This document shows, one piece after another, positions 4,304 to 28,841 of a stretch of 64,000 nucleotides of DNA. The translations under genes and the position numbers were made by a program. The first letter of the stretch is position 1, and each line of letters starts with the position of its first letter. Below the pieces are notes generated by a model. It saw only the letters and a list, made by a program, of their open reading frames with translations, made no database searches and was not told where the DNA came from. Location of the stretch: assembly GCA_964291625.2 (NCBI GenBank), contig OZ220089.1:4322554-4386553 (forward strand), given 5' to 3'. This DNA comes from Candidatus Latescibacterota bacterium (lineage in GTDB: Bacteria > Latescibacterota > UBA2968 > UBA8231).

Positions 4304-5045
4304 TCTGCTTGGGACTGGCTGTTGAGTCTATATGGATCTGAACGTCGACATGCAACTCGGGTAGATTCGACATGAGATCATTGTTCATAGTTGCCTCGGC
4401 GGGTGTAGGTGACCCACTGGGAGAATCGGTGCTGTGCGCTTCCTTGGATTCCTCCGCTGCACGGATTGGCTCTTTCGTCTCTTGTTCAAGCGTCTGCTCA
4501 ATAGACCGGACATAGTCGCTGCCCGAGATCTTGTGTATGAGGCGCAAGAACCGAAGGTTCGCGGTGAAGATCTCTACGGCCCTATCGCGGTCGGACTCCT
4601 CAATCCCTAGATTTGCGAACTCGTCTCTCAGCACTTGGTCGTCGGGAAGGCGCCGATCTTTCAGCTTTTGGTAGAGATTCTTGAATGGCCCGAACTGCTC
4701 TATCGCGAGTTGGAACTGCGTCTCGATCGCTTTGTAGGGAGACTGCTCCACGGCCAAGGCAATCTGCCCGCTATCGGTAATCGCCAAAGAGGTTGCACCG
4801 TAGCTGCCCGACGTCAGTCCATACCTTGAGGCATTAGTGACCAAACCCCGACTCGGGCCGCTGCTTGGCGAGCGGTTGAGTTTGTCGAATAGGGTTAGGC
4901 GTCGGATCTCACCACCGACACCGTGCTCATGGATCGCCTTGGGCAATAGAAGCGCTTCTTCGAACTCCATCGCGGGAAATGGTAGTTGGCGAGGGCGCCG
5001 CCTCTTCCTTGTTGGCTCTCTCTCGACATTTGTATGCTGTGTCAC
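4248..5045 (-). CDS. Hypothetical protein, no family recognised (possible N-terminal winged-helix-like region)
   Basis: ORF-track 265 aa, in the lower-GC segment. It is co-directional with the Ymh-like gene and overlaps its start. It has a basic N-terminus (KRRRPRQ), an acidic/Ser-Pro linker, and a conserved-looking C-terminal 'VDVQIHIDSTASPKQIDQIFASMARHLYG'. Confidence 0.55.
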   Translation of the reverse strand: MTQHTNVEREPTRKRRRPRQLPFPAMEFEEALLLPKAIHEHGVGGEIRRLTLFDKLNRSPSSGPSRGLVTNASRYGLTSGSYGATSLAITDSGQIALAVEQSPYKAIETQFQLAIEQFGPFKNLYQKLKDRRLPDDQVLRDEFANLGIEESDRDRAVEIFTANLRFLRLIHKISGSDYVRSIEQTLEQETKEPIRAAEESKEAHSTDSPSGSPTPAEATMNNDLMSNLPELHVDVQIHIDSTASPKQIDQIFASMARHLYGREAN

Positions 5046-5232
5046 CTATCGTCTCCCTTTCCTCACTATGGAATTCCTATCCTGGGCCCTTCTTCCTTCA
5101 TATGGAAGGCAAATGGTGTCCCAGTAGCCTCTCGGGTAATATTATCCTACGACTAGCAAGGTGATATGGCAAGCGAGGTCGAGAAGCGGTGCCGTGGACA
5201 GTATCTTCAGAACCTGAGGTAGCTCAGTCCTT

Positions 5233-12289: not shown

Positions 12290-12358
12290 TTCACTCGACG
12301 AGCAGAAGGTGGCGCACTGCGCCGACCGCTGTCCGCCGCAATGCCTGGCCTGGCCCTG

Positions 12359-13171
12359 CTAACCGAACTGTTCTTCCAGCCATGCTACCGCGAAATCCGT
12401 CAGATCCCTGGCGTTGAACAGATACGAGTCTGCGGCACCGACCCGTCCCGTGGCGTAGCTCCTGCAAGCCATGTACTCTCCTGTGATGGACGGGAAATAG
12501 CTGCCACCGGGCCAGTCGGCGATGCCGTCGGAAGTGTCAAACTGCTCGAACTCCATCCATTCGCACGAGCCACCACGCAAGACCGGCCAACGATAGCGCT
12601 CGGTCCTCTTGTCGGGCACGTCGGCGATGTGCTCTGCGTAGTGAAGAATGGTGAGGCTGTCGAAGAGGGGTCCAAGGAGGAGCACTCTCCCCCCAACTGT
12701 GCACAGCTTCTCGAGGGGAGAATCCACGCCATAGCCAAACTGGAGCGGATGGTCTGACGTTATCCACTCCGCTCTGGCGCCAACGGCCGCCATTCTTGCT
12801 TCAGGATGGGCGCTGCAGCAGGCCCCGGGCCATGTGCGCAGATACTCCGTGAGGATGCTCCACTCACGAAGGGCGCGAGTCCGGGAAGGATCAAACGGTG
12901 GACACTCTTCCAGGTACGCTCTCTGCCAGTCCTCCGGCCAATCATCGATTTCGTTCAAGGGCTCCTCGCACTTCACGTACATCATCAGGGTCCCGGTGGA
13001 GCCGAGGACGTCCAGGATGGCCCGAAGCACCATGTCGGGTCCGCCAACGATCCAGCCGACGGCCTTGACAGAAGCATGCAGCATCACGGTGTCGCCTGAG
13101 GCAAGGCCCAGTCTCGACAGGTCAGCTACCAATCCACTTCGTGTGATCACTGGCAGATTCGTGTTGGCCAT
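12359..13171 (-). CDS. Aminoglycoside N(3)-acetyltransferase family protein, AAC(3)-like
   Basis: ORF 12359..13261. ATG at 13171 (MANTNLPV) is preceded by GGGAGG. 'GDTVMLHASVKAVGWIVGGPDMVLRAILDVLGSTGTLMMY' and 'LTILHYAEH' match the Antibiotic_NAT / AAC(3) fold pattern. Confidence 0.8.
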   Translation of the reverse strand: MANTNLPVITRSGLVADLSRLGLASGDTVMLHASVKAVGWIVGGPDMVLRAILDVLGSTGTLMMYVKCEEPLNEIDDWPEDWQRAYLEECPPFDPSRTRALREWSILTEYLRTWPGACCSAHPEARMAAVGARAEWITSDHPLQFGYGVDSPLEKLCTVGGRVLLLGPLFDSLTILHYAEHIADVPDKRTERYRWPVLRGGSCEWMEFEQFDTSDGIADWPGGSYFPSITGEYMACRSYATGRVGAADSYLFNARDLTDFAVAWLEEQFG

Positions 13172-13211
13172 CCGGTTCGCCTCCCGTGTCAGGAAAGACC
13201 CTGAGTCGGGC

Positions 13212-13623
13212 CTACGTGCCCAGCTCTCTGAACAGGAAGAGCTCCCCCCGGTCGTCCGCAAACGGGAAGCCTGCCAGGAATCCGCACTCTGAAAACCCCA
13301 TCTGTCTATGCCATCTCTGCGGCTCGTATTCCTCCACGACGCACGAACTCAACAGGATCCTGTGGCCTCGGCGCCGCAGATCGTCTTCTACGAACGCAGC
13401 AGAGCCTTCCCAACCCCTCTTCGCTGGTGCTCACGCAATACACTGATCAGGACACACCACTCGACGTCCGCCTTGCCAGCAAGTCTCACCAGGATTCTCT
13501 GCCATGGTTCACCGTATACGGACGTGATATACCACATTGGAGCACCAACAGCGCTCCATTGGGTATCGACAGGCTGTCGACTATGGCGGGAGTCAGAACC
13601 TCGAACTGACGCTCTCGACGCAC
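13212..13623 (-). pseudogene. GNAT-family acetyltransferase remnant with two frameshifts
   Basis: My own reverse-strand translation gives three frame pieces. Piece 1: 'MRRERQFEVLTPAIVDSLSIPNGALLVLQCG...'. Piece 2: '...ITSVYGEPWQRILVRLAGKADVEWCVLISVLREHQRRGVGKALLRS*', which carries classic GNAT motif A. Piece 3: 'VEDDLRRRGHRILLSSCVVEEYEPQRWHRQMGFSECGFLAGFPFADDRGELFLFRELGT*'. The ORF track lists no long reverse-strand ORF here, which is consistent with a broken frame. Confidence 0.5.
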
Positions 13624-13628
13624 CGGCG

Positions 13629-13988
13629 CTACTTCACTCGCTCTTGAGGAACGACACGAATTGCATCATCTGGCCGGCGCGACAATGGCGGCAGGTCAGC
13701 ACGAGATTTCGGATCAATAACTGCGATCGTGTAGTCAACTGTGGTATCAGGGTAGACCTGAACAATCTTGTAGTCGATGGAGGGGTTCGGCTCCACAACG
13801 TGGATCGAATACTTGACGCCCAACTCAGGAACATGCATGTGGCGCCTTTTCTTCAGGGCGTGATCGACCCTTCGAACCGAAGACGAGTCACCTTGAAAAG
13901 CCAGCGTCAATGGCTTCTCGGCGGGCTCGGCGCAGCTGGTCGCCAGGAGTGCCCCTACTGCTGAACAGAGGATCCAGAGTCGTCGCAT
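13629..13988 (-). CDS. Small probable lipoprotein / secreted protein
   Basis: ORF-track 119 aa. Signal peptide 'MRRLWILCSAVGALLATSC' has a lipobox-like ATSC. The core 'HVPELGVKYSIHVVEPNPSIDYKIVQVYPDTTVDYTIAVIDP' is the unit that is duplicated at 14168-14292. Confidence 0.5.
   Translation of the reverse strand: MRRLWILCSAVGALLATSCAEPAEKPLTLAFQGDSSSVRRVDHALKKRRHMHVPELGVKYSIHVVEPNPSIDYKIVQVYPDTTVDYTIAVIDPKSRADLPPLSRRPDDAIRVVPQERVK
13721..13845. repeat. Diverged direct repeat, copy 1 (inside the lipoprotein gene)
   Basis: A 125-nt ungapped alignment with 14168-14292 shows about 16 mismatches counted by eye (~87% identity). Confidence 0.8.
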
Positions 13989-14164
13989 GCTCTCATCTCA
14001 ACCGTGACCTTGTCGGCCTTCGCCGCCTCTCCCTGCAAACCTGGCGTATGGATGACAAAGTGGTAATGGTCCTCGGAACAAGACAAGAACGTGTGCACCT
14101 CGCCCGGTTCGATGATGACGCCGGATCTCTCGCCAAAGTGGAACTCCTCGCCATCGACAAGCAT
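13955..14164 (-). pseudogene. Cupin-domain fragment (C-terminal half only)
   Basis: Internal Met of ORF 13955..14281: 'MLVDGEEFHFGERSGVIIEPGEVHTFLSCSEDHYHFVIHTPG' looks like the second half of a small cupin barrel. The N-terminal half is missing and the fragment overlaps the lipoprotein start. Confidence 0.35.
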
Positions 14165-14312: not shown

Positions 14313-15845
14313 TCAGGAACTCGGTTGCGCCGCCTCGCGCTCCGGCCGCCCTATATTGGGTCCCGCTTTGGTGTTGACGAAGCGTCGCTCGCGATTGGGG
14401 TTGCGCCAGCTGCGCACGCCGTGCGTCGTCGTGGCCGTGTACATGATCACCGTTCCGGCAACCCCCTGCATATGCTTGACCTGCGGCAGGTCGCAGCTGG
14501 TTTGCTTCGGGCGCGGCAGCGGCAGCCGCGCTTTGTGGCTTCCGGGGACTAACATCAGTCCACCGTCGCCCGTCGACGTCTCGACGTCTTGGAGCAGCCA
14601 GCCGATGTTCACCTGCTCCGTACGAGGCTGTCCGTCCCGGAAGTGATAGGTAGGGCCGGCGCCGTAAAACCAGCCGCCATGAAGGGGCTGGCCGGCCGCC
14701 CCGTCGCGGCTGACGATGGTGTAGCACGTCGTCATGACGAAGCCCGGGTCGATCATCCACTTCAGCCGCGCATTCACGAGCGGATTGTCGATCATGCGTC
14801 GAAAGCCGTCGCTGAAGGGTGAGGGATGGGTCCAGGTCTGCGAGATGCGCTCTTCGGTGCAGCGCGTGCCCGGGGCCGGGGCAATAGTCTGAGAACAGCC
14901 CTCGTAGTTCGGGTACTCGCCCACGACACTGCTCGAAAGGCCCAGCGGCCGACGGTTGGCTTCGGCGAAGGGCGAGTCGAGCGCTGCATTGCACTGCGCT
15001 AACCACTCGCGGTCCATCACGCCAGGCAGCACCAGGTAGCCTCTTAGGTCCCAGAACCACACCTCCTCGTGGTTCGGCGCGTCAGGCCGCGTGTTGACGC
15101 CCAGCAGCGACGGCGCCAGCTGCTGCTCGTTGCTGAGGGGCTGGCCGTCGTGGCCGAGGCCGCGTGGTGGGCCGGCCACCAGCGCTCGGCGCGCCGGCGC
15201 GAGCTCATCCAGCCAGCTGTCCACACCCGTCGTGCCGTGGCCGAAGGCCCCCCCAGGGTAGCGGGAGTCGTCGCAAAAGATGCACTCCTGCAGCGAGGAG
15301 CCCGGGGCGGCGCCGACCAGCGTGGTGGCAACCGCGAGCAGACAGTCGCCAGCGCGGAGCTGCACGCACTCCGTCGCCCCGAGCTCCTCGGCGCGCGCCA
15401 TGCTCGGGGGCGGCTGGACGTTGGCTTTGTGCGACGCGGGGCACACCACCGCGCGGCTGTCGCCCACGGCCCACAGCGCGCGCAGCCCCCAGACGCACAC
15501 CCGGTCGGGCCGGCTGGTCGTGTCGTAGCCCAGCCGGCGCTGCTCATCCACCGTCAGATCATTGGCCCACTGCCCCTCTTTGGTCAGGCGGCGCGACGGC
15601 CGGTCCAGCTCAAACTTGATCGTGTGGAACTCCTGTTCCTTCCCTTCAGTACCGTCGTACGCAGCGCGGTGCCACAGTGGTAACTCCCCGCCAGCTAGCT
15701 GATCAATCGCAGCCAGCAAGTCCGGATGCTCAGCCAGAGCGGCGGGTGTGGCGTGCGCCGCTGCCGGCGCGTCGAGCAGGCTCGGGAGGAGGATATAGCC
15801 GTCGAGCTCGAAGGCCCACTTCTGCTCCTCGGTCATCAGCGCCAT
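14313..15845 (-). CDS. Phytanoyl-CoA dioxygenase (PhyH)-family protein with tandem PhyH-like halves
   Basis: ORF 14313..15899; likely start MALMTEEQKW at 15845. There are two PhyH-type N-terminal motifs, 'FELDGYILLPSLL' and 'FWDLRGYLVLPGVMDREW'. The C-terminal half carries 'LMLVPGSHK' and 'GTVIMYTATTTHG'. Confidence 0.65.
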   Translation of the reverse strand: MALMTEEQKWAFELDGYILLPSLLDAPAAAHATPAALAEHPDLLAAIDQLAGGELPLWHRAAYDGTEGKEQEFHTIKFELDRPSRRLTKEGQWANDLTVDEQRRLGYDTTSRPDRVCVWGLRALWAVGDSRAVVCPASHKANVQPPPSMARAEELGATECVQLRAGDCLLAVATTLVGAAPGSSLQECIFCDDSRYPGGAFGHGTTGVDSWLDELAPARRALVAGPPRGLGHDGQPLSNEQQLAPSLLGVNTRPDAPNHEEVWFWDLRGYLVLPGVMDREWLAQCNAALDSPFAEANRRPLGLSSSVVGEYPNYEGCSQTIAPAPGTRCTEERISQTWTHPSPFSDGFRRMIDNPLVNARLKWMIDPGFVMTTCYTIVSRDGAAGQPLHGGWFYGAGPTYHFRDGQPRTEQVNIGWLLQDVETSTGDGGLMLVPGSHKARLPLPRPKQTSCDLPQVKHMQGVAGTVIMYTATTTHGVRSWRNPNRERRFVNTKAGPNIGRPEREAAQPSS

Positions 15846-16186
15846 GGACGCGCTCCGTGGAGATCGAAGAGGTACTTTTCCGTTTCGGTCATGAGGCAAC
15901 CCTCTCTCTCACAGATCGTCGCATTTGCGATTTGAGTTTGTTAGTGGGATGTGACAATCATCGGAACGAAATGGCTCGGTAAGCCCGCTGTGGCGTTCTC
16001 TGTTTGCTTCGTGATATTGATTCACACCGATGCTCTCTTTTGTTGCCGATAACTCCCCATAGCCGAAGAAATCGTTCGGATATGGGTTGCCAGTTGTCAG
16101 CTATCCGAAACGTAGGTACCGAGGTAAACAGTGGCCAGCGGTACTTCCAGGCGGACGGATTCAAGGCGCGACCGTGAAGGCCGCTG

Positions 16187-17076: not shown

Positions 17077-19899
17077 ATGCTCTCCATGACGACCGCCTCC
17101 GCCCCCACCGATGCCGCCAGCCGCGCCCTCGGCCGCACCGGCGAGCTGGATCTCGAAGACCGCCGCGTCCTCTGCCTCCTCGACGGCCTGGCCCTGGCCT
17201 ACCGCGCCCACTTCGCGCTGATCAACAACCCGGTCACCAACTCCCGGGGGATGAACACCTCGGCGCCCTTCGTCTTCACCAACACCCTGCTGGAGCTTCT
17301 GGAGCGCTTCGAGCCGACCCACCTGGCCGCCGTCTTCGACACCGGCGAGCCGACCCACCGGCACGAGGAGTTCGCCGAGTACAAGGCCCAGCGCGAGAGC
17401 ATGCCCGAGGATCTGGGCACGGCCATGCCCTACGTCTTCCGCATCCTCGAGGGGTTCAACATCCCCGTGGTGCGCGTCGACGGCTGGGAGGCCGACGACG
17501 TCATCGGCACCCTGGCGCGCCGCGCCGAGTCGGCGGGCATGACGACCTACATGGTCACGCCCGACAAGGACTTCGCCCAGCTCGTGTCGGAGCGGACCCT
17601 GCTCTACCGGCCGGGCCGCTCCGGCCGGCCTCCGGAGCTGCTCAACCAGGACGACGTGCTGGCCAAGTGGAAGATCGAGCGCATCGAGCAGATCCCCGAC
17701 CTCTTCGGGCTCATGGGAGACGCCATCGACAACGTCCCCGGCGTGCCCGGCATCGGCGAGAAGACGGCCCAGAAGCTGCTCGCCGACTTCGGCACCGTGG
17801 AGCAGCTCCTCGACCGCGTCGAGGAGATCAAGGGCAAGCGCCGCCAGGTCCTTCAGGAGCACGCCGACCAGGCGCGGCTCTCCAAGCGGCTGGTGACGAT
17901 CGAGACCGACGTTCCCGTGGAGCTAGAGATCGAAACCCTCAAGCGGGGGCCCGCCGACGACAAGGCTCTCACCGGGCTGTTCTCGGAGCTGGAGTTCAAC
18001 GCCCTCGGCAAGCGCCTCTTCGGCGACGACTTCGAGGCCGGGGTGCAGCGCCTCCACGCCGGCGTCGAGGATCCCCACGAGGTCCGCTCCATCGCCGACG
18101 TGGAGCACGACTACCGCACCGTCGAGGACGCCGCCGGCCGCGCCGCGCTGATCTCCGAGCTGAAGCAGGCCGGCGCCTTCGCCCTCGACCTGGAGACGAC
18201 GAGCCTCAACCCGCGCACCTGCGAGTTGCTGGGCCTGGCGGTGAGCCACACGCCTCACGCCGGCGCCTACGTCCCCTTCCCGGAAGACGAGGAGGAGGGC
18301 CGCGCCGTGCTCGAGGAGCTGCGCCCGCTGCTCGAGGACCCGGCGGTGGCCAAGATCGGCCACAACCTCAAGTTCGATCTCGTCGCCCTGCGCTGGCACG
18401 GCATCGAGGTGCAGGGCCGCCTCTTCGACACGATGGTGGCCGCCTTCCTCGCCGTGCCCGACCTGCGCCGCTCCCTCGACTACCTCTCCCAGGCCCTGCT
18501 CGGGTACAGGCCGGTGCCCATCGCCGACCTGATCGGCGAGCGCGGCGAGGACCAGCGCAGCATGCGCGAGGTGCCGCTTCGGGAGCTGACGGAGTACGCG
18601 GTGGAGGACGCCGACGTGGCCCTGCAGCTGAGCCACAAGCTGGAGCCGATGCTCGAGGAGTCGGGGCAGATGCCGCTCTACGAGGAGGTCGAGGCGCCCC
18701 TGATCCCGGTGCTGGCGGCCATGGAGCACGCCGGCATCCGCGTCGACCCCGCCATCCTCAAGACGATCTCCGACGAGTTGGCGGAGCGGATCGAGTCGGC
18801 GGCGCAACGGATCGAGGAGCTGGCGGGCGAGCCCTTCAACCTCAACTCGCCCCAGCAGCTCGGCAACATCCTCTTCGAGAAGCTGCAGCTCGATCCAAAC
18901 GCCCGCCGCACCTCCAAGTCGAAGCAGTACAAGACCGACGAGATGGTCCTCACGCGGCTCTCCCACGAGCACGAGATCGCCGCCCGGATCCTCGACCACC
19001 GGCTGTGCACCAAGCTGAAGTCGACCTACCTCGACATGCTCCCCGGGGCGATCTTCCCCGGCACCGGCCGCGTCCACACCCACTACGAGCAGGCCGTGGC
19101 CGCCACCGGCCGCATGCAGTCGAGCGGCCCCAACCTGCAGAACATCCCGATCCGCACCGAGCAGGGGCGCGAGATCCGCAAGGCCTTCGTGCCCGGAGGG
19201 CCCGAGTACACCCTGCTGGCCGCCGACTACTCCCAGATCGAGCTGCGCATCATCGCCGAGATCTGCGGCGACGAGCGCATGAACCGCGCCTTCCGCGAAC
19301 GCGAGGACATCCACGCGGTGACCGCCTCGCGCATCTGGGGGGTGCCGGAGGAGATGGTCGACGACGAGATGCGGCGCCAGGCGAAGACGGTCAACTTCGG
19401 CATCATCTACGGTATCTCCGCCTTCGGTCTGTCCGAGCGGCTGGGCCTGCCGCGCAAGCTGGGGCAGCAGTTCATCGAGCAGTACTTCGAGGAGTACCCC
19501 GGGGTGCGCCGCTACATGGACGAGACGATCGAGTTCTGCAAGGAGCACGGGTACGTGGAGACGATGCTCGGCCGCCGCCGCTACCTGAAGGACATCCACT
19601 CCCGCAACCGGGCGGTGCGCGCCGCCGCCGAGCGCAACGCCATCAACTCGCCGATCCAGGGCACGGCGGCGGACATGATCAAGCGCGCCATGGTGGCCAT
19701 CCACCGGCAGCAGGTCGAGCGGGGCTGGAAGACGCGCATGCTGCTGCAGGTCCACGACGAGCTGCTCTTCGACCTCCACCGCGAGGAGGAGGAGGAGGTG
19801 CGGGAGGTGGTGTCCCGGGAGATGAAGGAGGCGATCCCCATGAAGGTTCCCATCGACGTGGAGATGGGCACCGGCGAGACCTGGCTGGACGCCCACTGA
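17077..19899 (+). CDS. polA: DNA polymerase I
   Basis: ORF-track 940 aa. It has a 5'-3' exonuclease N-terminus and polymerase motifs A 'AADYSQIELRI', B 'RRQAKTVNFGIIYG' and C 'QVHDEL'. Confidence 0.97.
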   Translation: MLSMTTASAPTDAASRALGRTGELDLEDRRVLCLLDGLALAYRAHFALINNPVTNSRGMNTSAPFVFTNTLLELLERFEPTHLAAVFDTGEPTHRHEEFAEYKAQRESMPEDLGTAMPYVFRILEGFNIPVVRVDGWEADDVIGTLARRAESAGMTTYMVTPDKDFAQLVSERTLLYRPGRSGRPPELLNQDDVLAKWKIERIEQIPDLFGLMGDAIDNVPGVPGIGEKTAQKLLADFGTVEQLLDRVEEIKGKRRQVLQEHADQARLSKRLVTIETDVPVELEIETLKRGPADDKALTGLFSELEFNALGKRLFGDDFEAGVQRLHAGVEDPHEVRSIADVEHDYRTVEDAAGRAALISELKQAGAFALDLETTSLNPRTCELLGLAVSHTPHAGAYVPFPEDEEEGRAVLEELRPLLEDPAVAKIGHNLKFDLVALRWHGIEVQGRLFDTMVAAFLAVPDLRRSLDYLSQALLGYRPVPIADLIGERGEDQRSMREVPLRELTEYAVEDADVALQLSHKLEPMLEESGQMPLYEEVEAPLIPVLAAMEHAGIRVDPAILKTISDELAERIESAAQRIEELAGEPFNLNSPQQLGNILFEKLQLDPNARRTSKSKQYKTDEMVLTRLSHEHEIAARILDHRLCTKLKSTYLDMLPGAIFPGTGRVHTHYEQAVAATGRMQSSGPNLQNIPIRTEQGREIRKAFVPGGPEYTLLAADYSQIELRIIAEICGDERMNRAFREREDIHAVTASRIWGVPEEMVDDEMRRQAKTVNFGIIYGISAFGLSERLGLPRKLGQQFIEQYFEEYPGVRRYMDETIEFCKEHGYVETMLGRRRYLKDIHSRNRAVRAAAERNAINSPIQGTAADMIKRAMVAIHRQQVERGWKTRMLLQVHDELLFDLHREEEEEVREVVSREMKEAIPMKVPIDVEMGTGETWLDAH

Positions 19900-19910
19900 G
19901 AGGAGGAAGA

Positions 19911-21695
19911 GTGAACGAGAACGGCTGGATGCAGGTCGCCACCGTCGGCGAGATCGATCCCGGACAGGCCAAGGCCGTGCGCCTGGGCCAGGAAGGTCGC
20001 AGCGTGGCCCTCTTCAACGAGGGAGGGCGCATCTACGCCACCGACAACCAGTGCCCCCACATGGGCTACCCCCTCACGCGCGGAGTGGTGCGCAACGGCG
20101 TCGTCACCTGCGACTGGCATGGGCGGCGCTTCGACCTCGAGGGCGGCGGCTGCTTCAACAACATGTGCGACGACCTCGCCGTCTTCCCCGTGGAGATCCG
20201 GGCCGGCGGCCAGGTGTGGATTCAGGTGGAGGAGGAGGGCTACCGGCGCAAGGAGGTGCACCTCGAGCTGCTGCGCGAGGGGCTCCTCCACGGCGACCGC
20301 TGGACGATCTCCAAGGCCCTGGCCCTGCTGTCCCGCGGCGGCGTGCCGCGGGAGGAGGTCGTGGCCGTGGTGCTGCGCCACTTCGGCCGCCGCGTGGCCA
20401 GCTCCGGCGGCGACGAGGCGGGCACCGACCTGGGGCGCCTGGTGGGCGGCCTGGCGGTGGCCGACCGCTACGACGGCGCCGATCAGCTGGCCTGCCTGGC
20501 CACGGCGGCCACGGCCGCCTCGGGCGAGGCGGCTTCGCGGCTGCGGGTCGTGCCCCTGCCCGAGCCGGTGACGCAGGAGCGCATCGAGGACTGGGTGCGC
20601 GTGTTCTCGCGCAACGGCCAGGCCAACCGCATCGAGCGCTGCCTCTTCACCACCCGTTCGCGCGGCGACACGGAGCGCATCCTGCCGCTGCTCTTCGAGT
20701 GCGCCGTGCAGCCGGGGTTCCTCGGCTTCGGCGGCAACCTCGTCAGCCTCGCCTGCCTGGCCGACGTGGTGGACCGCTTCGGCTGGGAGGCGTCGTCCGA
20801 GCTGGTCCTCAACCTCGGGTCGCGCACGGTGGGACAGGGACGCGGCGAGCCCGAGCTGTTCCGCCGCGACGCCATCCGCAAGATGCGGGACCTCGCCGGC
20901 GTCATCGACCAGGCGGCGGAGTCTCCCGGGCAGGGGCTCGAGTTCGACGAGGACGCCCTGGCGGCGGACCTGCTCAGCGGCGACCTGGAACGGTCCTTCG
21001 ACTCCCTGGCGCGGACGCTGCAGTCCGGCGTGTCCCCGCAGCGCCTGATCACCACCTTCCTGCTGGTCGCCGCCGACCGCATGGCGCGCACGCCGGTGAA
21101 CGTCGACGCCGGCTGGAGCTGCCTCACTCTCGAGCTGGACCTGGCGCGGTCGCTGCGCACGGCCCTGCGCATCGGCGGCCCCCGGGTCGCCGCCATGGGG
21201 TTGTTCCACGCCGCCTGGCACCTGTTCGCCGACCGCTGGCTCAACATCCCCGCCCGGCCCCTGTCCGAGCCCCCGGAGGCCGTCCCGTCGACGGCCGCCT
21301 CGGCCGGGGAAGGGGTCGAGGAGGTGGCCCGGGCGGTGCAGACCCTGGACGTGCACGCCGCCGGCGAGAGCGCCGCGGGCTACCTGGCGGCCGGACTCGA
21401 CGCCGATCTGCTGCTGCACCGGTTGGGGGTGCTGGTCCTGTGGAACGACACCGGCGCCCGTCTGCTGCCGACGCTCCGGTCGGTGGTCGACGAGTTCGCC
21501 GGCACCCGGGGCTCCGACGCCGCCCTCGGCGCGGGCCACCCGGCGGCGGCGCAGCTGGTGGCGGGCCTGGCGAGGTACGCCACCGACGTGCGCACCAGCA
21601 AGGCCAGCGGCGCGGCGACGACCACCGCCCTGCGCTTCGCCGAGGGCCTCACCACCATCGACGTATTCGCCGACGAGGAGCCGGCCCAGCCATGA
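19911..21695 (+). CDS. Rieske [2Fe-2S]-domain protein fused to a ~480-aa uncharacterised helical domain (paralog 1)
   Basis: This is the real gene inside chimeric ORF 16752..21695. GTG at 19911 lies 11 nt after the polA stop and is preceded by GAGGAGG. Rieske ligand motifs are 'CPHMGYPL' (20052-) and 'CDWHG' (20109-). The rest of the protein has no family I recognise. Confidence 0.8.
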   Translation: MNENGWMQVATVGEIDPGQAKAVRLGQEGRSVALFNEGGRIYATDNQCPHMGYPLTRGVVRNGVVTCDWHGRRFDLEGGGCFNNMCDDLAVFPVEIRAGGQVWIQVEEEGYRRKEVHLELLREGLLHGDRWTISKALALLSRGGVPREEVVAVVLRHFGRRVASSGGDEAGTDLGRLVGGLAVADRYDGADQLACLATAATAASGEAASRLRVVPLPEPVTQERIEDWVRVFSRNGQANRIERCLFTTRSRGDTERILPLLFECAVQPGFLGFGGNLVSLACLADVVDRFGWEASSELVLNLGSRTVGQGRGEPELFRRDAIRKMRDLAGVIDQAAESPGQGLEFDEDALAADLLSGDLERSFDSLARTLQSGVSPQRLITTFLLVAADRMARTPVNVDAGWSCLTLELDLARSLRTALRIGGPRVAAMGLFHAAWHLFADRWLNIPARPLSEPPEAVPSTAASAGEGVEEVARAVQTLDVHAAGESAAGYLAAGLDADLLLHRLGVLVLWNDTGARLLPTLRSVVDEFAGTRGSDAALGAGHPAAAQLVAGLARYATDVRTSKASGAATTTALRFAEGLTTIDVFADEEPAQP

Positions 21696-23440
21696 GCGCG
21701 AATGGAGACTTCGTGAGAGTCGCCTCCATCGACGAGGTCGTCGAGGGGCAGCCGAAAGCGGTCCGCGTCGAGGGCCGGAGCGTCGCCCTCTTCCAGCACC
21801 GGGGCCGCTACTACGCCACCGACAACCAGTGCCCCCACATGGGCTACCCCCTCACCCGCGGCATCGTGCGCGACGGGGTGCTGACCTGCGACTGGCACGG
21901 GTACAGCTACGACCTGGGCGGCGGCGGCTGTTTCACCGGCGGCTGCGACGACCTCGATACCTACCCGGTGGAGGTTCGGGACGGCGAGATCCACATCGAC
22001 GTCAGGAGCGGCGGCTCCCGGCGGGACGACGCCCACTTCCTGCTGCTGGAGGAGGGCCTGAACAACGGCGACAGCTGGACCCTCTCCAAGGCGATCGCCA
22101 TCCTCCTGGCCCGCGGCGTCTCCGAGGGCGAGACCCTCGAGAAGCTGGTGCGCCACATGGGCCGCTACGCGGCCACCCAGCTCGACGCCCGTCAGGCGGG
22201 CAACGAGGTGGCCCTCTTCGTCAACGGTCTCGCCGTGGCCCGGCGCTACGAGCCGGAGGAGCGGCTGATCCCGCTGATGATGGCGGCCACGGCCGCCTCG
22301 GGGCGCGCCGGCGACCGGCCGCCCCTGCGGGAGCTGCCCGGGGTCTCGGCCGGCGGAACGGTTCCCTACGACAGGCTCGCCGGCTGGGTGCGGTACTTCT
22401 CCGAGGACAAGATGTGGGAGGGGATCGAGAAGTGCCTGCTCACGATGCGAAGCCAGGGCGGCCGCGACGACGACATACCTCCCCTGCTCTTCGAGTGCGC
22501 CGTGGCCCCCCACTTCATCGCCGTCCGCGACAACCTGCGCAACCTCGGTTACCTCATGGAGTTGCTCGACGAGTTCGGCTGGGAGATCGGCGAGGAACTG
22601 GTCTGCAACACGGCGGCGAAGATGCTCGGTCGCGGCCGGGGCGTTCCCGGCGATCTGCTGCGCGAGGCCATGGATCTCTTCGAGGGGACGCCGATCCCCG
22701 ACGATCCGGACGAGGCCTCGGGCGAGTTCGACGAGGCGGCCTTCGTCGAGGGGCTGGTGAGCGGCAACGTGCGCGCCACCTTCGAGGCCGTGACCCAGGC
22801 CCTGAGGGAGGGGGCCGGCGTCGAGCAGCTGGCCACCTCGATGGTGATGCTCGCCGCCGACCGCATGGCGCGCACCCCCGTGGGCATGAGCCCGGGGTGG
22901 GGGGACCTGGCCTGGGAGATGTCCCTGGCCTCGGCGGTGCGCACCGTCAACCGCCGGGCCGGGGCCGGAGCCGCGCGCCGGAGCCTCTACCACGCCGCCT
23001 GGGTGTTCTTCGACAACCGCTGGCTGAACATCCCCCAGCGCCGGCTCGCCGAGGCCGAAGCCGCCTCGGGCAACGGCACCGCCCCCGGGGAGGAGGATGC
23101 CGCCCTCGAGCGGATCGTCGAGGCCATCGAGTCGATCCAGGTGCGCCGCATCGGCCGCATGACGCGGGACTACCTCAACGCCGGCCACGACGGCGACCGC
23201 CTGCTGCGCGAGCTGGGCCTGGTCATCCTGGGCGACGACAACGGCTGGGATCTGCTGCACACCCTGCGCACCGTCTTCGACGAGTGGGAGCGCTGCGCCG
23301 GCCACCCGGCGCGCAACCAGCTCCTCGTGGGACTGTCGCGCTGGGCGGCGGACACGCGCCGCCGGATCGGCAGCCAGTCGGCGGCGGCCACGGCCCAGCG
23401 CTTCGCCCGCGGCGAGACGGCGGTGGAGCTGTACGAGTAG
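21692..23440 (+). CDS. Rieske [2Fe-2S]-domain protein fused to a ~480-aa uncharacterised helical domain (paralog 2)
   Basis: ATG at 21692 overlaps the paralog-1 stop (ATGA) and is in frame with ORF 20051..23440. 'ATDNQCPHMGYPLTRG' and 'TCDWHG' are present. It aligns end to end with paralog 1 through shared blocks PLLFECAV, LAADRMARTPV and YHAAW.FFDNRWLNIP. Confidence 0.8.
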   Translation: MSANGDFVRVASIDEVVEGQPKAVRVEGRSVALFQHRGRYYATDNQCPHMGYPLTRGIVRDGVLTCDWHGYSYDLGGGGCFTGGCDDLDTYPVEVRDGEIHIDVRSGGSRRDDAHFLLLEEGLNNGDSWTLSKAIAILLARGVSEGETLEKLVRHMGRYAATQLDARQAGNEVALFVNGLAVARRYEPEERLIPLMMAATAASGRAGDRPPLRELPGVSAGGTVPYDRLAGWVRYFSEDKMWEGIEKCLLTMRSQGGRDDDIPPLLFECAVAPHFIAVRDNLRNLGYLMELLDEFGWEIGEELVCNTAAKMLGRGRGVPGDLLREAMDLFEGTPIPDDPDEASGEFDEAAFVEGLVSGNVRATFEAVTQALREGAGVEQLATSMVMLAADRMARTPVGMSPGWGDLAWEMSLASAVRTVNRRAGAGAARRSLYHAAWVFFDNRWLNIPQRRLAEAEAASGNGTAPGEEDAALERIVEAIESIQVRRIGRMTRDYLNAGHDGDRLLRELGLVILGDDNGWDLLHTLRTVFDEWERCAGHPARNQLLVGLSRWAADTRRRIGSQSAAATAQRFARGETAVELYE

Positions 23441-23478
23441 CCCGGCCACAGAAGCTGCATCATCACGGAAAGGGCACC

Positions 23479-24852
23479 ATGGCAGAGACAGCCTCATCGA
23501 ACAACGGGCCCCGGGACCGACGCCGGGCGTTCCTGTGCGGCGCCATGCTCACCTGGCTCCTGGCCCCGGCCGCGGCCGGGGCCGAGGGCCTCGACTCCGG
23601 GGACACGGCATGGATGCTGACCTCCACGGCCCTCGTGCTGTCCATGACGATCCCCGGGCTGGCCCTGTTCTACGGCGGCCTGGTGCGCACCAAGAACGTG
23701 CTCTCCGTGCTGATGCAGTGCTTCGCCCTGGCGGCGGTGATGACCTTGGTCTGGGTGGTCTGGGGCTACAGCCTGGCCTTCGACACCGCGGGGATGGAAG
23801 CGGGCGTCACCAACGCCGCCTCCTTTGTCGGCGGCCTCGACAAGGCCCTGCTGCGCGGCGTCGGCATCGACGCCCTCACCGGCACGGTGCCCGAGACGGT
23901 CTTCGTCACCTTCCAGCTGACCTTCGCCATCATCACCCCGGCCCTGATCGTCGGCGCCTTCGCCGAGCGCATGAAATTCTCGGCCATGCTGCTGTTCATG
24001 GTCGTCTGGGTCACCGTGGTCTACGCGCCGATCTGTCACATGACCTGGAGCGGTGACGGCGCCTTCTTCTGGGACTTGGGCATCCTCGACTTCGCCGGCG
24101 GCACCGTGGTCCACATCAACTCCGGCGTGGCCGCCCTGGTGGCGGCCCTGGTCATCGGCAAGCGCCGCGGCTATCCGGACACCCTCATCCCGCCCCACAG
24201 CCTGGTGATCACCGTCATCGGCGCCTCCATGCTGTGGGTCGGCTGGTTCGGCTTCAACGCCGGCTCGGCCCTGGCCGCCGACGGCGCCGCGGGCATGGCC
24301 ATGCTCGTCACCCAGGTAGCCACCGCCGCCGCCGCCGCCGCGTGGATGGTGGTGGAGTGGATCAAGCACGGCAAGGCGAGCGTCCTCGGCGTCGTCACCG
24401 GCGCCGTGGGGGGCATGGTGGCCATCACCCCCGCCTCGGGCAGCGTCGGTCCCCTCGGGGCCATCGCCATCGGCGCCGCCGCCGGAGTTCTGTGCTTCCT
24501 GGGCGCCACCACCCTCAAGCAGCGCCTCGGCTACGACGACTCCCTCGACGTCTTCGGCGTCCACGGCATCGGCGGCATGGCCGGCGCCATTCTCACGGGG
24601 GTCTTCGCCGCCGAGTCTCTCGGCGGACAGGGCTTCGGCGCTACCGCCGCCGGAGTGACCCACACCATGGGCGGCCAGGTGTGGGCGCAGATCGTGGGCG
24701 TGCTCGTCACCACCATCTACTGCGCCGTGCTCTCCTTCGTCATCCTCAAGGCCGTCGATGCCGTCATCGGCCTGCGCGTCGACGAGGACGAGGAGGAGCG
24801 CGGTCTGGACATCTCCCTGCACAACGAGCAGGGCTACTATTCGGAGGTTTGA
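23479..24852 (+). CDS. amtB: Ammonium transporter (Amt family)
   Basis: ATG at 23479 in frame with ORF 21829..24852. It has a signal-like N-terminus. 'DSGDTAWMLTSTALVLSMTIPGLALFYGGLVR' and 'FAGGTVVHINSGVAALV' are Amt hallmarks. Confidence 0.95.
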   Translation: MAETASSNNGPRDRRRAFLCGAMLTWLLAPAAAGAEGLDSGDTAWMLTSTALVLSMTIPGLALFYGGLVRTKNVLSVLMQCFALAAVMTLVWVVWGYSLAFDTAGMEAGVTNAASFVGGLDKALLRGVGIDALTGTVPETVFVTFQLTFAIITPALIVGAFAERMKFSAMLLFMVVWVTVVYAPICHMTWSGDGAFFWDLGILDFAGGTVVHINSGVAALVAALVIGKRRGYPDTLIPPHSLVITVIGASMLWVGWFGFNAGSALAADGAAGMAMLVTQVATAAAAAAWMVVEWIKHGKASVLGVVTGAVGGMVAITPASGSVGPLGAIAIGAAAGVLCFLGATTLKQRLGYDDSLDVFGVHGIGGMAGAILTGVFAAESLGGQGFGATAAGVTHTMGGQVWAQIVGVLVTTIYCAVLSFVILKAVDAVIGLRVDEDEEERGLDISLHNEQGYYSEV

Positions 24853-24863
24853 AGGAGGAGGCC

Positions 24864-25202
24864 ATGAAGCTGCTGAAGTGCATCGTTCGTCCCAACGCGC
24901 TCGAGAGGGTCAAGGAGGCTCTGAGCGAGTTGGGCGTGATGGGCATGACGGTGAGCGAGGTGAAGGGATTCGGGAGGCAGAAGGGGCACCGGGAGATCTA
25001 CCGCGGCTCCGAGTACAACATCGACTTCACGCCGAAACTCCAGATCGACGTGGTCGTGGCCGACTCGATCGCCCAACGCTCCATCGACGCGGTGAAGGAA
25101 GCGGCCGGCACGGGACACATCGGCGACGGCAAGATCTTCGTGCTCTCCGTCGACGAGGTGGTCCGCATCCGCACGGGGGAGACGGGCGAATCGGCGATCT
25201 GA
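24864..25202 (+). CDS. glnK: Nitrogen regulatory protein P-II
   Basis: 112 aa: 'MKLLKCIVRPNALERVKEAL...VKGFGRQKGHREIYRGSEY...GDGKIFV'. AGGAGG lies upstream. The gene starts 11 nt after amtB. Confidence 0.95.
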   Translation: MKLLKCIVRPNALERVKEALSELGVMGMTVSEVKGFGRQKGHREIYRGSEYNIDFTPKLQIDVVVADSIAQRSIDAVKEAAGTGHIGDGKIFVLSVDEVVRIRTGETGESAI

Positions 25203-25279
25203 CTGGCCCGCCGCCGGCTCCGGCGGAGGCGGCCACCGAAGCCGGGACGCGGCTCCTGCGTTGTGAGGACGGCAGCCCC

Positions 25280-26059
25280 GTGGCCCGCCTCGGGCTGGCG
25301 GGGAATCCGAACACCGATCCTCGCTGTGTCTCCGCCGCCTTCGAGGCGGGCGTCAACCTGTTCTTCTTCTACAATCTCGGCTTCACCGGTCTCGTCGACG
25401 GCCTGACGCGCCTCGGGGAACGGAGGGACGCCTTCGTGGCCACCGGCTCCGAGAGCCGGGACCCGGCGGAGGTGGAGCGCTACCTGTCCCAGGTGGAGGA
25501 GCGGCTGCCGGCCGACTCCGTCGACCTGTTCTACGCCGAGTACGTGCATCCCGGCGACGACGTGGACGGACTGCTCGCCGACGACGGCGTCGTCGGCCTC
25601 CTGCACAGGTGGAAGGAGGCGGGCCGGATCCGCTACGTTGGCGCCACGGCGCACAACCGGCCCCTGGCGCGGCGGCTCCTGGAGAGCGGCCGCATCGACG
25701 TGCTCATGCACCGCTACAACATGGCCCACCGGGGCGCGGAGGAGGCCGTGCTGCCCGCCGCCCTGGAGCGGCGCATCCCCGTGGTGGCCTTCACCTGCAC
25801 ACGCTGGGGCGGGCTGCCGGCCGGTCATCCCGGCTGGTCGGGGCCGGTCCCCACGGCCGCCGACTGTTACCGCTTCGCCCTCGGACACGACGCCGTGCAG
25901 GTGGCCCTCACGGCGCCGGGGAGCCTCGAGGAGCTGCGGGCCAACCTCGCCGTCTTGCGGGAGCCGGACCCCACCGCGTCCGAGATCGCTGGCTGGCGCG
26001 CCTACGGAGACTTGGTCTACGGGGCGGGCCGGGACGAGTTCGAGACCCGGTGGCCGTGA
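25280..26059 (+). CDS. Aldo/keto reductase-family oxidoreductase (start uncertain)
   Basis: Frame of ORF 24758..26059. 'VDLFYAEYVHPGDD' and 'AGRIRYVGATAHN' are AKR-like. There is no ATG. GTG at 25280 is the first canonical start, but homology-like sequence ('RLLRCEDGSPVARLGLAG') extends upstream to about 25250. Confidence 0.6.
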   Translation: MARLGLAGNPNTDPRCVSAAFEAGVNLFFFYNLGFTGLVDGLTRLGERRDAFVATGSESRDPAEVERYLSQVEERLPADSVDLFYAEYVHPGDDVDGLLADDGVVGLLHRWKEAGRIRYVGATAHNRPLARRLLESGRIDVLMHRYNMAHRGAEEAVLPAALERRIPVVAFTCTRWGGLPAGHPGWSGPVPTAADCYRFALGHDAVQVALTAPGSLEELRANLAVLREPDPTASEIAGWRAYGDLVYGAGRDEFETRWP

Positions 26060-26187
26060 GGCGGTGTATCCGCAAGGGGGGAGGGGCCGTATATTCTCGT
26101 GAGACGACGGGATGGACTCTGGTGACGACAAGTGACAGCCCGGCTGGCCGGCCTGGAGCCGCGCAGCCGGGCCGGTGAACCAGCTCG

Positions 26188-27693
26188 ATGGAAGGCGCCG
26201 TCCGCCACAACTGCGGATTCTGCGTCGCCCATACCCTCCACGACGCCTACTCCTTCATCCGCGCCCTGCAGCACCGGGGCCGGGAAGCGGCGGGGATAGC
26301 CGCCGTTGGCGAAGGGCGAATCGACGTCATCAAGTGGTCGGGCGGCGTCGACCGCTTCGACATCACCGACCTCCACAAGATCTTCCCCAGCCCCAGCTAC
26401 CACACCTACATGGCCCACGTGCGCTACGCCACGCAGGGCCGCAAGGACGAGATCCTCGACGACGCCCACCCCCACGTGCTCGGGGGGCAGGTGGAGGACC
26501 GGGGCAGCCACATCCTGATCCGCGACTGCCAGATGGCCGCCGTCCACAACGGCCAGATCGACTTCGGGTACTTCGACGGCCTCGATCTCTCACAGATGAA
26601 GTCCAAGTGCGACACCGAGGCCCTCCTCTATCTCTACCGGCGCGACGGCGAGGAGGCCTTCCTGCGCCGGGTCCCCGGCGCCTACACGATGGCCATCGCC
26701 GATTGGCGCAAGCGGGACGTGATCGTCCTGCGCGACCGCACCGGCATCAAGCCGGGGGTCCTGGGCTGGAAGGACGGCAAGTACGGCGTCGCCTCCGAGG
26801 ACATCGCCTTCCGCAAGAACGGAGGCGAGTACATCGAGGACCTCGATCCCGGGTCGCTCTACTACCTGTCACCGGAGGGGGAGTACTCCAAGGAACTCCT
26901 GGTCGAGCCGCAGCCGCGTCACTGCTTCTTCGAGTGGAACTACATCTCCGACGTCGACTCGATCATCAACCACGTAGCCGCCCGCCGCGTCCGCGAGCAG
27001 CTGGGGGAGATCCTGGCCGAGGAGTTCACCCCCTCGGATGTGGACGTGGTCACTTTCCTGCCGCGGTGTCCCGAGGTGGCGGCGCGCTCCTACGCCCAGA
27101 TCCGGGGCCTGCCCTTCATGCCCGTGTTCTACAAGATGCGGGGCGAGCGGTCCTTCCAGGGGTCGACGGCCCGGGACCGGAGGCAGTCGATCGACGACAA
27201 CCTGCATCTGCTGCCCGGACTGCGCCCGCGCCTGTCGGGGAAGACGGTGCTGCTCATCGACGACAGCATCGTGCGCGGCAACAACCTGATCCGCGCCCGC
27301 AACCTGCTCTACGACGCCCTCGGTGTGAAGAAGGCCTACGTGGCCTCGTACACCCCGCCCATCGGCATCGTACCCGAAGACGGGGTGCCGCGGGGATGCA
27401 TGTTCGGCGTCGACATGCCGCCCACGCCGCCGAAAGGCGAGGAGTTCATCGCCCGCGGCCGGGAGCCCCGCGAGATCAGCGAGAAGATGGGCCTGCCCGT
27501 GGTCTACATCTCCACCCGCGGCATGATGCGCGCCTTCGAGCGTCTGGGCCTCGAGTCCGGAAGGCTCTGCACCTACTGCATCGGCGGCGGCCACCCCTTC
27601 GCAGGCTGCGAGGCCAGTGACTCGGCGGGGGAGAGCCAGCTGGACCTGCTGACCGTCTCCAGGGCCGCCGCGGCCGGGTCTGCGGGCGGCTGA
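26188..27693 (+). CDS. purF: Amidophosphoribosyltransferase-like protein (class-II glutamine amidotransferase + PRTase)
   Basis: ORF-track 501 aa. Its 'MEGAVRHN' prefix precedes the 'CGFCVA' Ntn cysteine. Also present: 'AAVHNGQI', 'KCDTEALL', the PRPP loop 'VLLIDDSIVRGNN', and a C-terminal Cys cluster 'CTYCIGGGHPF'. It is divergent, so the purF assignment is tentative. Confidence 0.7.
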   Translation: MEGAVRHNCGFCVAHTLHDAYSFIRALQHRGREAAGIAAVGEGRIDVIKWSGGVDRFDITDLHKIFPSPSYHTYMAHVRYATQGRKDEILDDAHPHVLGGQVEDRGSHILIRDCQMAAVHNGQIDFGYFDGLDLSQMKSKCDTEALLYLYRRDGEEAFLRRVPGAYTMAIADWRKRDVIVLRDRTGIKPGVLGWKDGKYGVASEDIAFRKNGGEYIEDLDPGSLYYLSPEGEYSKELLVEPQPRHCFFEWNYISDVDSIINHVAARRVREQLGEILAEEFTPSDVDVVTFLPRCPEVAARSYAQIRGLPFMPVFYKMRGERSFQGSTARDRRQSIDDNLHLLPGLRPRLSGKTVLLIDDSIVRGNNLIRARNLLYDALGVKKAYVASYTPPIGIVPEDGVPRGCMFGVDMPPTPPKGEEFIARGREPREISEKMGLPVVYISTRGMMRAFERLGLESGRLCTYCIGGGHPFAGCEASDSAGESQLDLLTVSRAAAAGSAGG

Positions 27694-28019: not shown

Positions 28020-28841
28020 TCAGCACTCGGCGCCGCGCACCTCGCCGCCGTAGACCTGCATCCGTGCCTCGGTGGTGGTCTCTTCGGCGGCGGCGGGGCG
28101 GTAGTGGAACTGCAGGGCCCAGCGGCGGCGGCGGGAGTGGTTCACGGGACTGCCGTGGTGGGTCAGGCCGTGCCACAGGAGGATCCCCCCCGGGGGGAGG
28201 GGCACCACCACGTCGCGGCCGGGGGCGACGTCGGTGTCGCAGATCTGCCAGTCGCGGCGGTTGAAGTGGTTCCTCGGGCCCTCGCGGTGGGAGCCGGGGA
28301 TGACGTGAAGGGCGCCGTTGGCCGCCGTCGCCTCGTCGAGGGCGATCCACAGGCCGATGACGGGCGTGTCCAGGGAGACGTTGAAGTAGGCCATGTCCTG
28401 GTGCCAGGGCTTCTCCCGGCCTCCCGGCGGCTTGAGCAGAGCCATGTCCTGGAACATCCGCGGCGTTTGCCCATCCATGAGGGAGCTCACCAGGCCCAGC
28501 AGCCCCGGGTCCTCGCTCATCTCCTTCAGCGCCGGATGGTAGTCGACGAACTTCATCAGCTTGCGCACGCCCAGGCGCCGCCGCCGGGGCGGCCACGGCC
28601 GGCGGCCGCCGGCCTCGAACTGCAGGCCGCGGAAGGAGGGATCGCCGCCGTCGATGAGGGAGTCCACCGCGGCCCCCGCCGCCCGGATCCGCTGCCGGGA
28701 GACGGCCCGGCGCACGGCCAGGTACCCCTGGTCGTGGAAGAAGGCGCGTTCCGCCTCGCCGACGGAATCGAGACTCTCCACAAGCCGGGCGGCGCGCTCG
28801 TCGTTGTAGAGGCCCGCGGGGTGGGGGAGGGCTTCCGTCAT
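28020..28841 (-). CDS. Phytanoyl-CoA dioxygenase (PhyH)-family 2OG/Fe(II) oxygenase
   Basis: ORF-track 273 aa. Motifs seen: 'FFHDQGYLAVRRAV', 'WHQDMAYF', 'LHVIPGSHREGP', 'GGILLWHGLTHHGS'. Confidence 0.75.
   Translation of the reverse strand: MTEALPHPAGLYNDERAARLVESLDSVGEAERAFFHDQGYLAVRRAVSRQRIRAAGAAVDSLIDGGDPSFRGLQFEAGGRRPWPPRRRRLGVRKLMKFVDYHPALKEMSEDPGLLGLVSSLMDGQTPRMFQDMALLKPPGGREKPWHQDMAYFNVSLDTPVIGLWIALDEATAANGALHVIPGSHREGPRNHFNRRDWQICDTDVAPGRDVVVPLPPGGILLWHGLTHHGSPVNHSRRRRWALQFHYRPAAAEETTTEARMQVYGGEVRGAEC

Follow-up and report, generated by a model that had tools for sequence, protein, structure and literature searches.

Paired, duplicated Rieske proteins with a large helical domain that lacks detectable characterised relatives, from uncultivated bacterial lineages

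The present analysis concerns two adjacent genes, here called A and B, in a 64-kb stretch of DNA from a Candidatus Latescibacterota bacterium (contig OZ220089.1; the whole stretch of 64,000 nucleotides is hereafter the window). Each gene encodes a protein in which an N-terminal Rieske domain is followed by a large, predicted all-alpha C-terminal domain for which neither a characterised family nor a solved structure gave a detectable relative. The two genes arose by an ancient duplication and are invariably found together, with A preceding B. We give about an even chance to the interpretation that A and B form a soluble, cytoplasmic, two-subunit Rieske-dependent oxidoreductase of undescribed architecture, in which electrons would pass to or from a site in the helical domains. 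No published description of a Rieske-helical architecture was found in the literature. The two genes, their start signals and their domains are located as follows:

19911-21695, plus strand: gene A, A-type paralog of the Rieske-helical fusion, 594 aa, GTG start (from translation)
21692-23440, plus strand: gene B, B-type paralog of the Rieske-helical fusion, 582 aa, ATG start (from translation)
19900-19906, plus strand: Shine-Dalgarno-like GAGGAGG of gene A, 4 nt before the GTG at 19911 (sequence reading)
21675-21680, plus strand: Shine-Dalgarno-like GAGGAG of gene B, within the 3' end of gene A, 11 nt before the ATG at 21692
21692-21695, plus strand: ATGA stop/start overlap of A and B (TGA of A at 21693-21695, ATG of B at 21692-21694)
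19926-20225, plus strand: Rieske [2Fe-2S] domain of A, residues ~6-105 (PF00355, E = 8.2e-17, 61.3 bits)
21710-22000, plus strand: Rieske [2Fe-2S] domain of B, residues ~7-103 (PF00355, E = 2.2e-17, 63.2 bits)
20238-21692, plus strand: all-alpha C-terminal domain of A, residues ~110-594 (no Pfam match at E <= 10)
22019-23437, plus strand: all-alpha C-terminal domain of B, residues 110-582, ~21 helices (model ma156087e1da0)

A first reading of the window, the original prediction, had described two genes of 594 and 582 aa overlapping as ATGA, and its coordinates and lengths were all correct. Gene A starts 11 nt downstream of the polA stop codon (19897-19899), and the A/B junction (CAG CCA TGA / ATG AGC) has the sequence CCATGAGC. 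The window is ~70% G+C and its mechanically called open reading frames (ORFs) overrun the real genes; the limits of A and B were set from the frame-specific G+C content at third codon positions (GC3) and from translation. GC3 reaches 0.96 in both genes (0.75, 0.51 and 0.96 at the first, second and third positions of gene A), and comparison with a 95%-identical relative gave ratios of synonymous-only to amino-acid-changing codon differences of 53:23 for A and 60:32 for B. Judged by GC3 and by these counts, A and B are real coding genes, and both copies are under equal purifying selection. Moreover, orthologs of gene A that are 93-94% identical to it, P0121 among them, are called with the identical start. 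Both products are acidic, with an isoelectric point of ~5, and neither contains a transmembrane segment, as had been anticipated for the C-terminal domain (maximum 19-residue hydropathy of 1.58 in A and 1.05 in B). The expected full-length similarity was also recovered, since the proteins align end to end with 265 of 597 positions identical (44%, E = 8e-149). Among the C-terminal blocks that had been quoted as common to the pair, PLLFECAV is exact in both proteins; the others match exactly in B, and A has near-exact variants of them, including VAADRMARTPV and FHAAWHLFADRWLNIP.

The N-terminal domain is, by sequence and by structural model, a bona fide ferredoxin-type Rieske domain that is predicted to bind a [2Fe-2S] cluster. 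Its profile scores lie above the PF00355 cut-off of 20.3 bits, and PF13806 is matched as well (48 bits for A). The two ligand boxes that had been proposed for a domain of ~100 aa, CPHMGYPL (box 1) and CDWHG (box 2), occur in both A and B with the spacing C-x-H-x16-C-x2-H, the predicted cluster ligands in B being C47, H49, C66 and H69. All four ligand columns are invariant, in 68 of 68 members of the A/B clade and in 28 of 28 sequences across the wider superfamily considered below. Additionally, the best NCBIfam and PDB sequence matches of the domain are NirD and the ferredoxin components of dioxygenases, and a Foldseek comparison of the Rieske domain in the B model with solved Rieske ferredoxins gave template-modelling scores (TM) of 0.83-0.89 at a root-mean-square deviation (rmsd) of ~1.6 Å (5bok, 2e4q and 2qpz: TM 0.87-0.89, 1.6 Å). 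The attributes of a Rieske domain are found together here, namely the ligand motif C-x-H-x(15-17)-C-x-x-H, a profile score above the cut-off and, in the model, the beta-sandwich fold. These matches, together with the lack of an oxygenase catalytic domain, sustain the earlier description of the domain as resembling NirD and ferredoxins rather than oxygenase alpha subunits.

The rest of each protein, a helical domain of ~470 residues, was modelled for B in two ways. The AlphaFold model of the C-terminal domain alone (ma156087e1da0) is wholly helical, with ~21 helices, a mean predicted local distance difference test score (pLDDT) of 87.6 and a predicted TM score (pTM) of 0.89, and the model of full-length B reached a pLDDT of 87.1 and a pTM of 0.80. 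The layout of the helices agrees between these two independent models, and the full-length pTM suggests that the arrangement of the Rieske and helical domains may be fixed. Searches for relatives of this domain were negative in Pfam (even at E <= 10), in NCBIfam, in the anti-phage defence models of PADLOC (E <= 0.1) and, with phmmer and a 16-sequence profile in hmmsearch, among PDB sequences, where the sole match, to annexin VI at E = 0.039, was judged spurious. Foldseek likewise returned no match for the C-terminal model in the PDB, the top entries (designed helical proteins and MFS/MATE transporters; E >= 0.14, TM <= 0.15) being noise, nor in BFVD, where the best entry was an uncharacterised Pithovirus protein at E = 0.09, and the full-length model recovered Rieske structures only. 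The domain is therefore of no known fold in the sense that neither a solved structure (PDB) nor a predicted viral structure (BFVD) resembles it. Internal repeats were sought by aligning four segments of ~115 residues with hhalign, which gave a single weak and unconvincing signal, between segments 1 and 3, at a probability of 27%. The original prediction had left ~480 aa of each protein unassigned, and no characterised family was matched in any of these searches.

The strongest regularity concerns the pair itself. Wherever DNA upstream of B is present, in 81 of 81 loci, it carries an A-type gene on the strand of B (87 loci in total), and the six loci with B only all end at a contig edge. Homologs in the A/B clade are thus always paired, and the view of an old duplication retained as a pair is upheld. 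Mean identity is 67% among A proteins, 67% among B proteins and 48% between the two types, which indicates that the duplication is older than all the sampled lineages (nine, defined at 75% identity of B). At 113 positions the two types have the same residue with at least 95% conservation, against only 9 fixed differences between A and B; since both copies are equally conserved and have these near-invariant positions in common, neither is degenerate. In the numbering of B, the near-invariant residues include the four cluster ligands and, in the helical domain, H115, D127, W129, T130, K133, H155, Y186, E246, C269, E290, E409, D516, E531, H538 and D554, as well as nine arginines. Translational coupling through ATGA, by contrast, stood only for the lineage of the window, to which the overlap is particular: adjacency of A and B is universal, and the spacing differs by lineage, usually from about -11 to +256 bp outside the window lineage and from 0.7 to 6.4 kb in some Poribacteria and two Acidobacteriota loci. 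In Poribacteria the insert often includes an ankyrin-repeat gene. One such gene separates A from B at L006:4425-5642, as one of the few interruptions of the pair, and it has homologs in 13 other loci; these loci are mainly of Poribacteria.

Database homologs of the C-terminal domain comprise 523 B-type and 412 A-type proteins. Nearly all of them span 575-595 aa and begin with a Rieske domain, and their database names go no further than 'Rieske (2Fe-2S) protein' or 'nitrite reductase/ring-hydroxylating ferredoxin subunit'. A scan in which each GTDB species was represented by one genome turned up 247 encoding stretches; the best 80 loci all come from metagenome-assembled genomes (MAGs) and none from a cultured isolate. 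These 80 loci belong to Gemmatimonadota, 'Latescibacterota', Poribacteria, Acidobacteriota (Blastocatellia and Bryobacteraceae) and Dehalococcoidia, and members of the pair remain 55-66% identical across phyla. The closest relative of the window is a Gemmatimonadaceae MAG with 95% identity. NCBI labels are inconsistent in this part of the sample, where loci 90-95% identical to the window are called either Gemmatimonadaceae or Latescibacterota, and many of the MAG isolate names, going by the names only, resemble those of sponge and coral microbiome projects.

When a profile of the C-terminal domain was used in an exhaustive search, 450 cluster representatives were retrieved at E <= 1e-3, of which three represent the A/B clade; the others, mostly Rieske plus helical proteins, extend from E = 1e-45 to 1e-18 among the 150 matches listed. 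These proteins (e.g., P0301 and P0286) resemble A and B in architecture and length (~580-600 aa) and are homologous to them across the helical domain, but they are only 23-29% identical to the pair and, unlike it, are single-copy genes in variable contexts, as seen at the three loci examined. They occur in Chloroflexota, Methylomirabilota and other taxa, and carry no annotation beyond 'Rieske 2Fe-2S domain-containing protein'. Besides the Rieske ligands, A and B have in common with their relatives K133, E246, R391, W403, N446 and R550 (B numbering), residues whose conservation in the superfamily alignment is complete or no lower than 90%. With a Rieske N-terminus and a homologous helical domain of ~470 aa, A and B belong, as judged from their sequences, to this superfamily, within which the pair appears as a divergent branch of otherwise single-copy proteins.

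The wide clade has a polar signature of its own. In P0301 numbering, E240, H274, D277, E312, E517 and H522 are invariant and D266, H267, E313, E402 and D518 nearly so, within the motifs TDHxF..GHxLDFxNK, RxEE, NExxDW and REDAxFHxxQ, and this set of Glu, His, Asp, Glu, Glu and His looks like a non-heme iron site. A and B keep only its first Glu (E246) and an acidic residue at D516; both His positions are lost, and E312 aligns with an invariant arginine, R316. The invariants of the pair are instead H115, H155, H538, D127, E290, E409, E531, D554, C269 and the nine arginines. Given that most of the metal-like set has been replaced, the chemistry of A and B probably differs from that of their relatives. 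A few members of the superfamily carry further domains. P0318 (L090:1519-6885) joins an extracytoplasmic function (ECF) sigma-70 domain to the Rieske and helical domains in 843 aa, adjoins a TetR gene and is followed 1 kb downstream by a second Rieske protein of 592 aa; P0305 (L091:789-2993) continues from Rieske and helical domains into an adenylate/guanylate cyclase within 734 aa and adjoins a MerR gene. Other rare fusions are to WD40 repeats and to a 3-keto-disaccharide-hydrolase domain. Each of these fusions is represented by one protein, and the sigma and cyclase fusions, each on a single short contig, hint at a sensory role in their own clades.

The surroundings of the pair were compared on the basis of the following genes of the window:

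17077-19899, plus strand: polA (DNA polymerase I, 940 aa)
23479-24852, plus strand: amtB (ammonium transporter), starting 38 bp after B
24861-25202, plus strand: glnK/P-II
~25247-26059, plus strand: aldo-keto-reductase-like gene
26188-27693, plus strand: class-II glutamine amidotransferase
14313-15899, minus strand: PhyH gene, 528 aa, with a ~280-residue N-terminal extension
28020-28841, minus strand: PhyH gene

From polA to the glutamine amidotransferase (17077-27693) the plus-strand run is unbroken, with gaps of 11-130 bp and no terminator-like site in them, and the presence of polA and amtB-glnK in one possible operon is unusual. The same gene order recurs in L001, the one close relative for which genes were listed. 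Beyond close relatives the context dissolves: de novo clustering of all ORFs in the 87 loci found no neighbour in more than four of the nine lineages, and in the Dehalococcoidia, Acidobacteriota, Gemmatimonadota and Latescibacterota loci the neighbours identified with Pfam were unrelated (VIT-VWA, transketolase, diversity-generating retroelement, Sel1, Mo-oxidoreductase and shikimate kinase). The conserved unit is the A/B pair itself. The conservation of gene neighbourhood that had been proposed as a check on the original prediction consequently holds for the pair and fails for polA and amtB-glnK.

Several individual loci may be recorded here. In another Gemmatimonadota lineage (L018:11569-14255), the genes after polA, A and B encode a Sel1-repeat protein and a sulfite-oxidase-like molybdopterin oxidoreductase. 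In the Poribacteria locus L003, A is immediately preceded by genes for ATP sulfurylase and a sulfate/molybdate-type ABC transporter, and in L004 and L050 a PhyH domain fused to HEAT repeats is encoded divergently upstream of A. An Acidobacteria MAG (L053:11635-13034) has a bAvd-like gene and a reverse transcriptase directly downstream of B, which is the signature of a diversity-generating retroelement. Within the 64-kb window, no tRNA genes and no Rfam families above the gathering threshold were found, and segments 2001-6000 and 12001-14000 have a G+C content of 0.60-0.62, compared with ~0.70 for the window.

If A and B do form a Rieske-dependent oxidoreductase, the following scheme may be envisaged. 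From the obligate pairing it can reasonably be inferred that the two proteins form a heteromer, which would be pseudo-symmetric. The helical domains would form a catalytic or ligand-binding site that receives single electrons from the Rieske clusters or gives them up to the clusters, possibly across the subunit interface; in Rieske oxygenases, the cluster likewise passes its electrons to the active site of the adjacent subunit. With so many arginines invariant, the substrate or cofactor might be anionic. More tentatively, as a possibility that falls short of being probable, the pair could be the catalytic core of a new enzyme class, with its active site in an all-alpha fold not seen before and with a lineage-specific chemistry on a possibly anionic metabolite in uncultivated Poribacteria, Gemmatimonadota, Latescibacterota, Acidobacteriota and Dehalococcoidia. 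Several observations weigh against an oxidoreductase: no nameable metal- or cofactor-binding motif was found in the helical domains of A and B, the His/carboxylate set of the wide clade is lost, so that the domain could be non-catalytic, no conserved neighbour indicates a pathway or a reductase partner, and the rare ECF sigma and cyclase fusions of distant relatives fit a sensor better than an enzyme.

It is from two of these lines of evidence, the fusions of P0318 and P0305 beside TetR and MerR genes and the absence from A and B of the metal-like residues, that a redox sensor or regulator could be argued. The cluster would then respond to O2, NO or the cellular redox state, the signal would be passed on through binding of the helical domain to a partner such as a sigma factor, and the pair would be the stand-alone form of a sensory module. 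We consider this unlikely. The two fusions stand among 450 representatives, each on a single short contig, belong to clades only 26-28% identical to B and may be mis-assemblies; DNA-binding and output domains are absent from A and B, and no regulator or regulated gene is conserved beside the pair. Furthermore, the cross-phylum identity of 55-66% and the 113 common near-invariant positions, many of them polar residues of a buried type, are more typical of an enzyme.

The neighbouring genes suggest two other roles, which we regard as less credible still. The pair might serve as an electron-transfer or scaffold partner of Fe(II)/2-oxoglutarate (Fe/2OG) oxygenases of the PhyH family (PF05721), for instance in their re-reduction or in iron delivery; this is quite improbable in our view, even though an initial set of small loci mostly had a PhyH gene close to the pair, the two PhyH genes of the window flank the pair with no other within 64 kb, and PhyH is the sole neighbour cluster reaching four of the nine lineages. 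Over the 87 loci, 25 PhyH genes were counted at 0-2 kb upstream and 9 at 2-8 kb upstream, counts that are inflated by synteny among close relatives. PhyH is, however, the most abundant Pfam domain in Poribacteria, accounting for >1.9% of genes (PMC3909097), and at such an abundance about one locus in three should have a PhyH gene within 10 kb by chance. The PhyH proteins encoded beside the pair are also non-orthologous, with 20-30% identity between arrangement types, and the 10 kb on either side of the pair are free of PhyH genes in the complete Dehalococcoidia loci, in every Acidobacteriota-labelled locus and in a second Poribacteria clade. Moreover, Fe/2OG oxygenases normally need no protein electron donor, and a link between PhyH and the pair is unproven. 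A role in nitrogen assimilation, with a NirD-like Rieske domain acting alongside AmtB and P-II (GlnK), would agree with the same-strand order of amtB 38 bp after B, glnK, the aldo-keto reductase and the class-II glutamine amidotransferase, and with NirD as the best NCBIfam match of the Rieske domain. Yet amtB-glnK follows B in L001 and is absent from every annotated locus of another lineage, the NirD scores of 49-51 bits stay below the cut-off of 74.65, and no NirB-like gene was called within +/-10 kb in L001. A nitrogen role through amtB-glnK was rejected as lineage-specific, and we see very little prospect of it being correct.

The combination of a Rieske domain with a large helical domain of no known fold would add an architecture to the known kinds of Rieske protein, and an obligate duplicated pair that is 55-66% identical across phyla probably signals new redox chemistry. 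As far as sampled, the family is confined to uncultivated lineages and has therefore escaped study, and it is a marker of unexplored metabolism in those groups, which include several dominant symbionts of sponges. The wider superfamily, with hundreds of cluster representatives and a possible non-heme iron site, is unannotated, so that thousands of 'Rieske domain-containing' proteins would gain an annotation once a single member had been characterised.

Known Rieske architectures comprise the respiratory subunits of the bc1 and b6f complexes, free ferredoxins, NirD, and oxygenase alpha subunits with a START-like domain. Like the low-potential ferredoxin type, the Rieske domains of A and B lack, on reading their sequences, the disulfide cysteines of the bc1/b6f type. 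Their fold is closest to the Rieske ferredoxins of the BphA3/BphF, naphthalene dioxygenase and 3-nitrotoluene dioxygenase systems (2e4q, 1fqt, 2qpz and 5bok), with TM 0.83-0.89, rmsd of 1.6-1.7 Å, the common C-x-H...C-x-x-H pattern and sequence matches down to E = 1e-10. Those components, however, are free-standing shuttles of 100-110 aa encoded with a reductase and an oxygenase, whereas A and B are fused and paired; as fusions of 594 and 582 aa without a conserved oxygenase or reductase neighbour, they were rejected as free-standing ferredoxin components. Membership of the HcaC, AndAb and MocE equivalogs was also rejected, the scores of A and B being 33-48 bits against cut-offs of 113-150, and no NCBIfam equivalog model was matched above its cut-off.

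The Rieske oxygenase alpha subunits (carbazole, phthalate and dicamba enzymes; SxtT/GxtA), which assemble into oligomers, are the nearest in concept, in that an N-terminal Rieske domain precedes a larger C-terminal domain, but their weak sequence and structure matches to A and B cover the Rieske part only (~110 columns). The catalytic domain of these alpha chains is an alpha/beta domain of the START/Bet v 1-like kind with a 2-His-1-carboxylate iron site. For A and B, no match to Ring_hydroxyl_A or VanA_C was obtained at E <= 10, the model is all-helical and no structural match was found, and assignment to the oxygenase alpha subunits was rejected. Helical diiron-carboxylate enzymes, such as the ferritin-like hydroxylases of bacterial multicomponent monooxygenases (BMM) and the heme-oxygenase-like (HO-like) oxidases, were rejected as well, with no Pfam or Foldseek match and no conserved ExxH in A and B.

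The remaining comparison is with NirD (TIGR02378, PF13806), which gives the best NCBIfam model for the Rieske domains (E ~1e-13) and has a similar 'G-x-C...L..YPV' tail following box 2. No NirB-type gene was present in the neighbourhood gene lists examined, and identity with NirD was rejected on scores of 50.6 and 48.8 bits, below its cut-off, and on the 470 extra residues of A and B. Many NirD proteins lack the cluster ligands; in contrast, all four are invariant in A and B.

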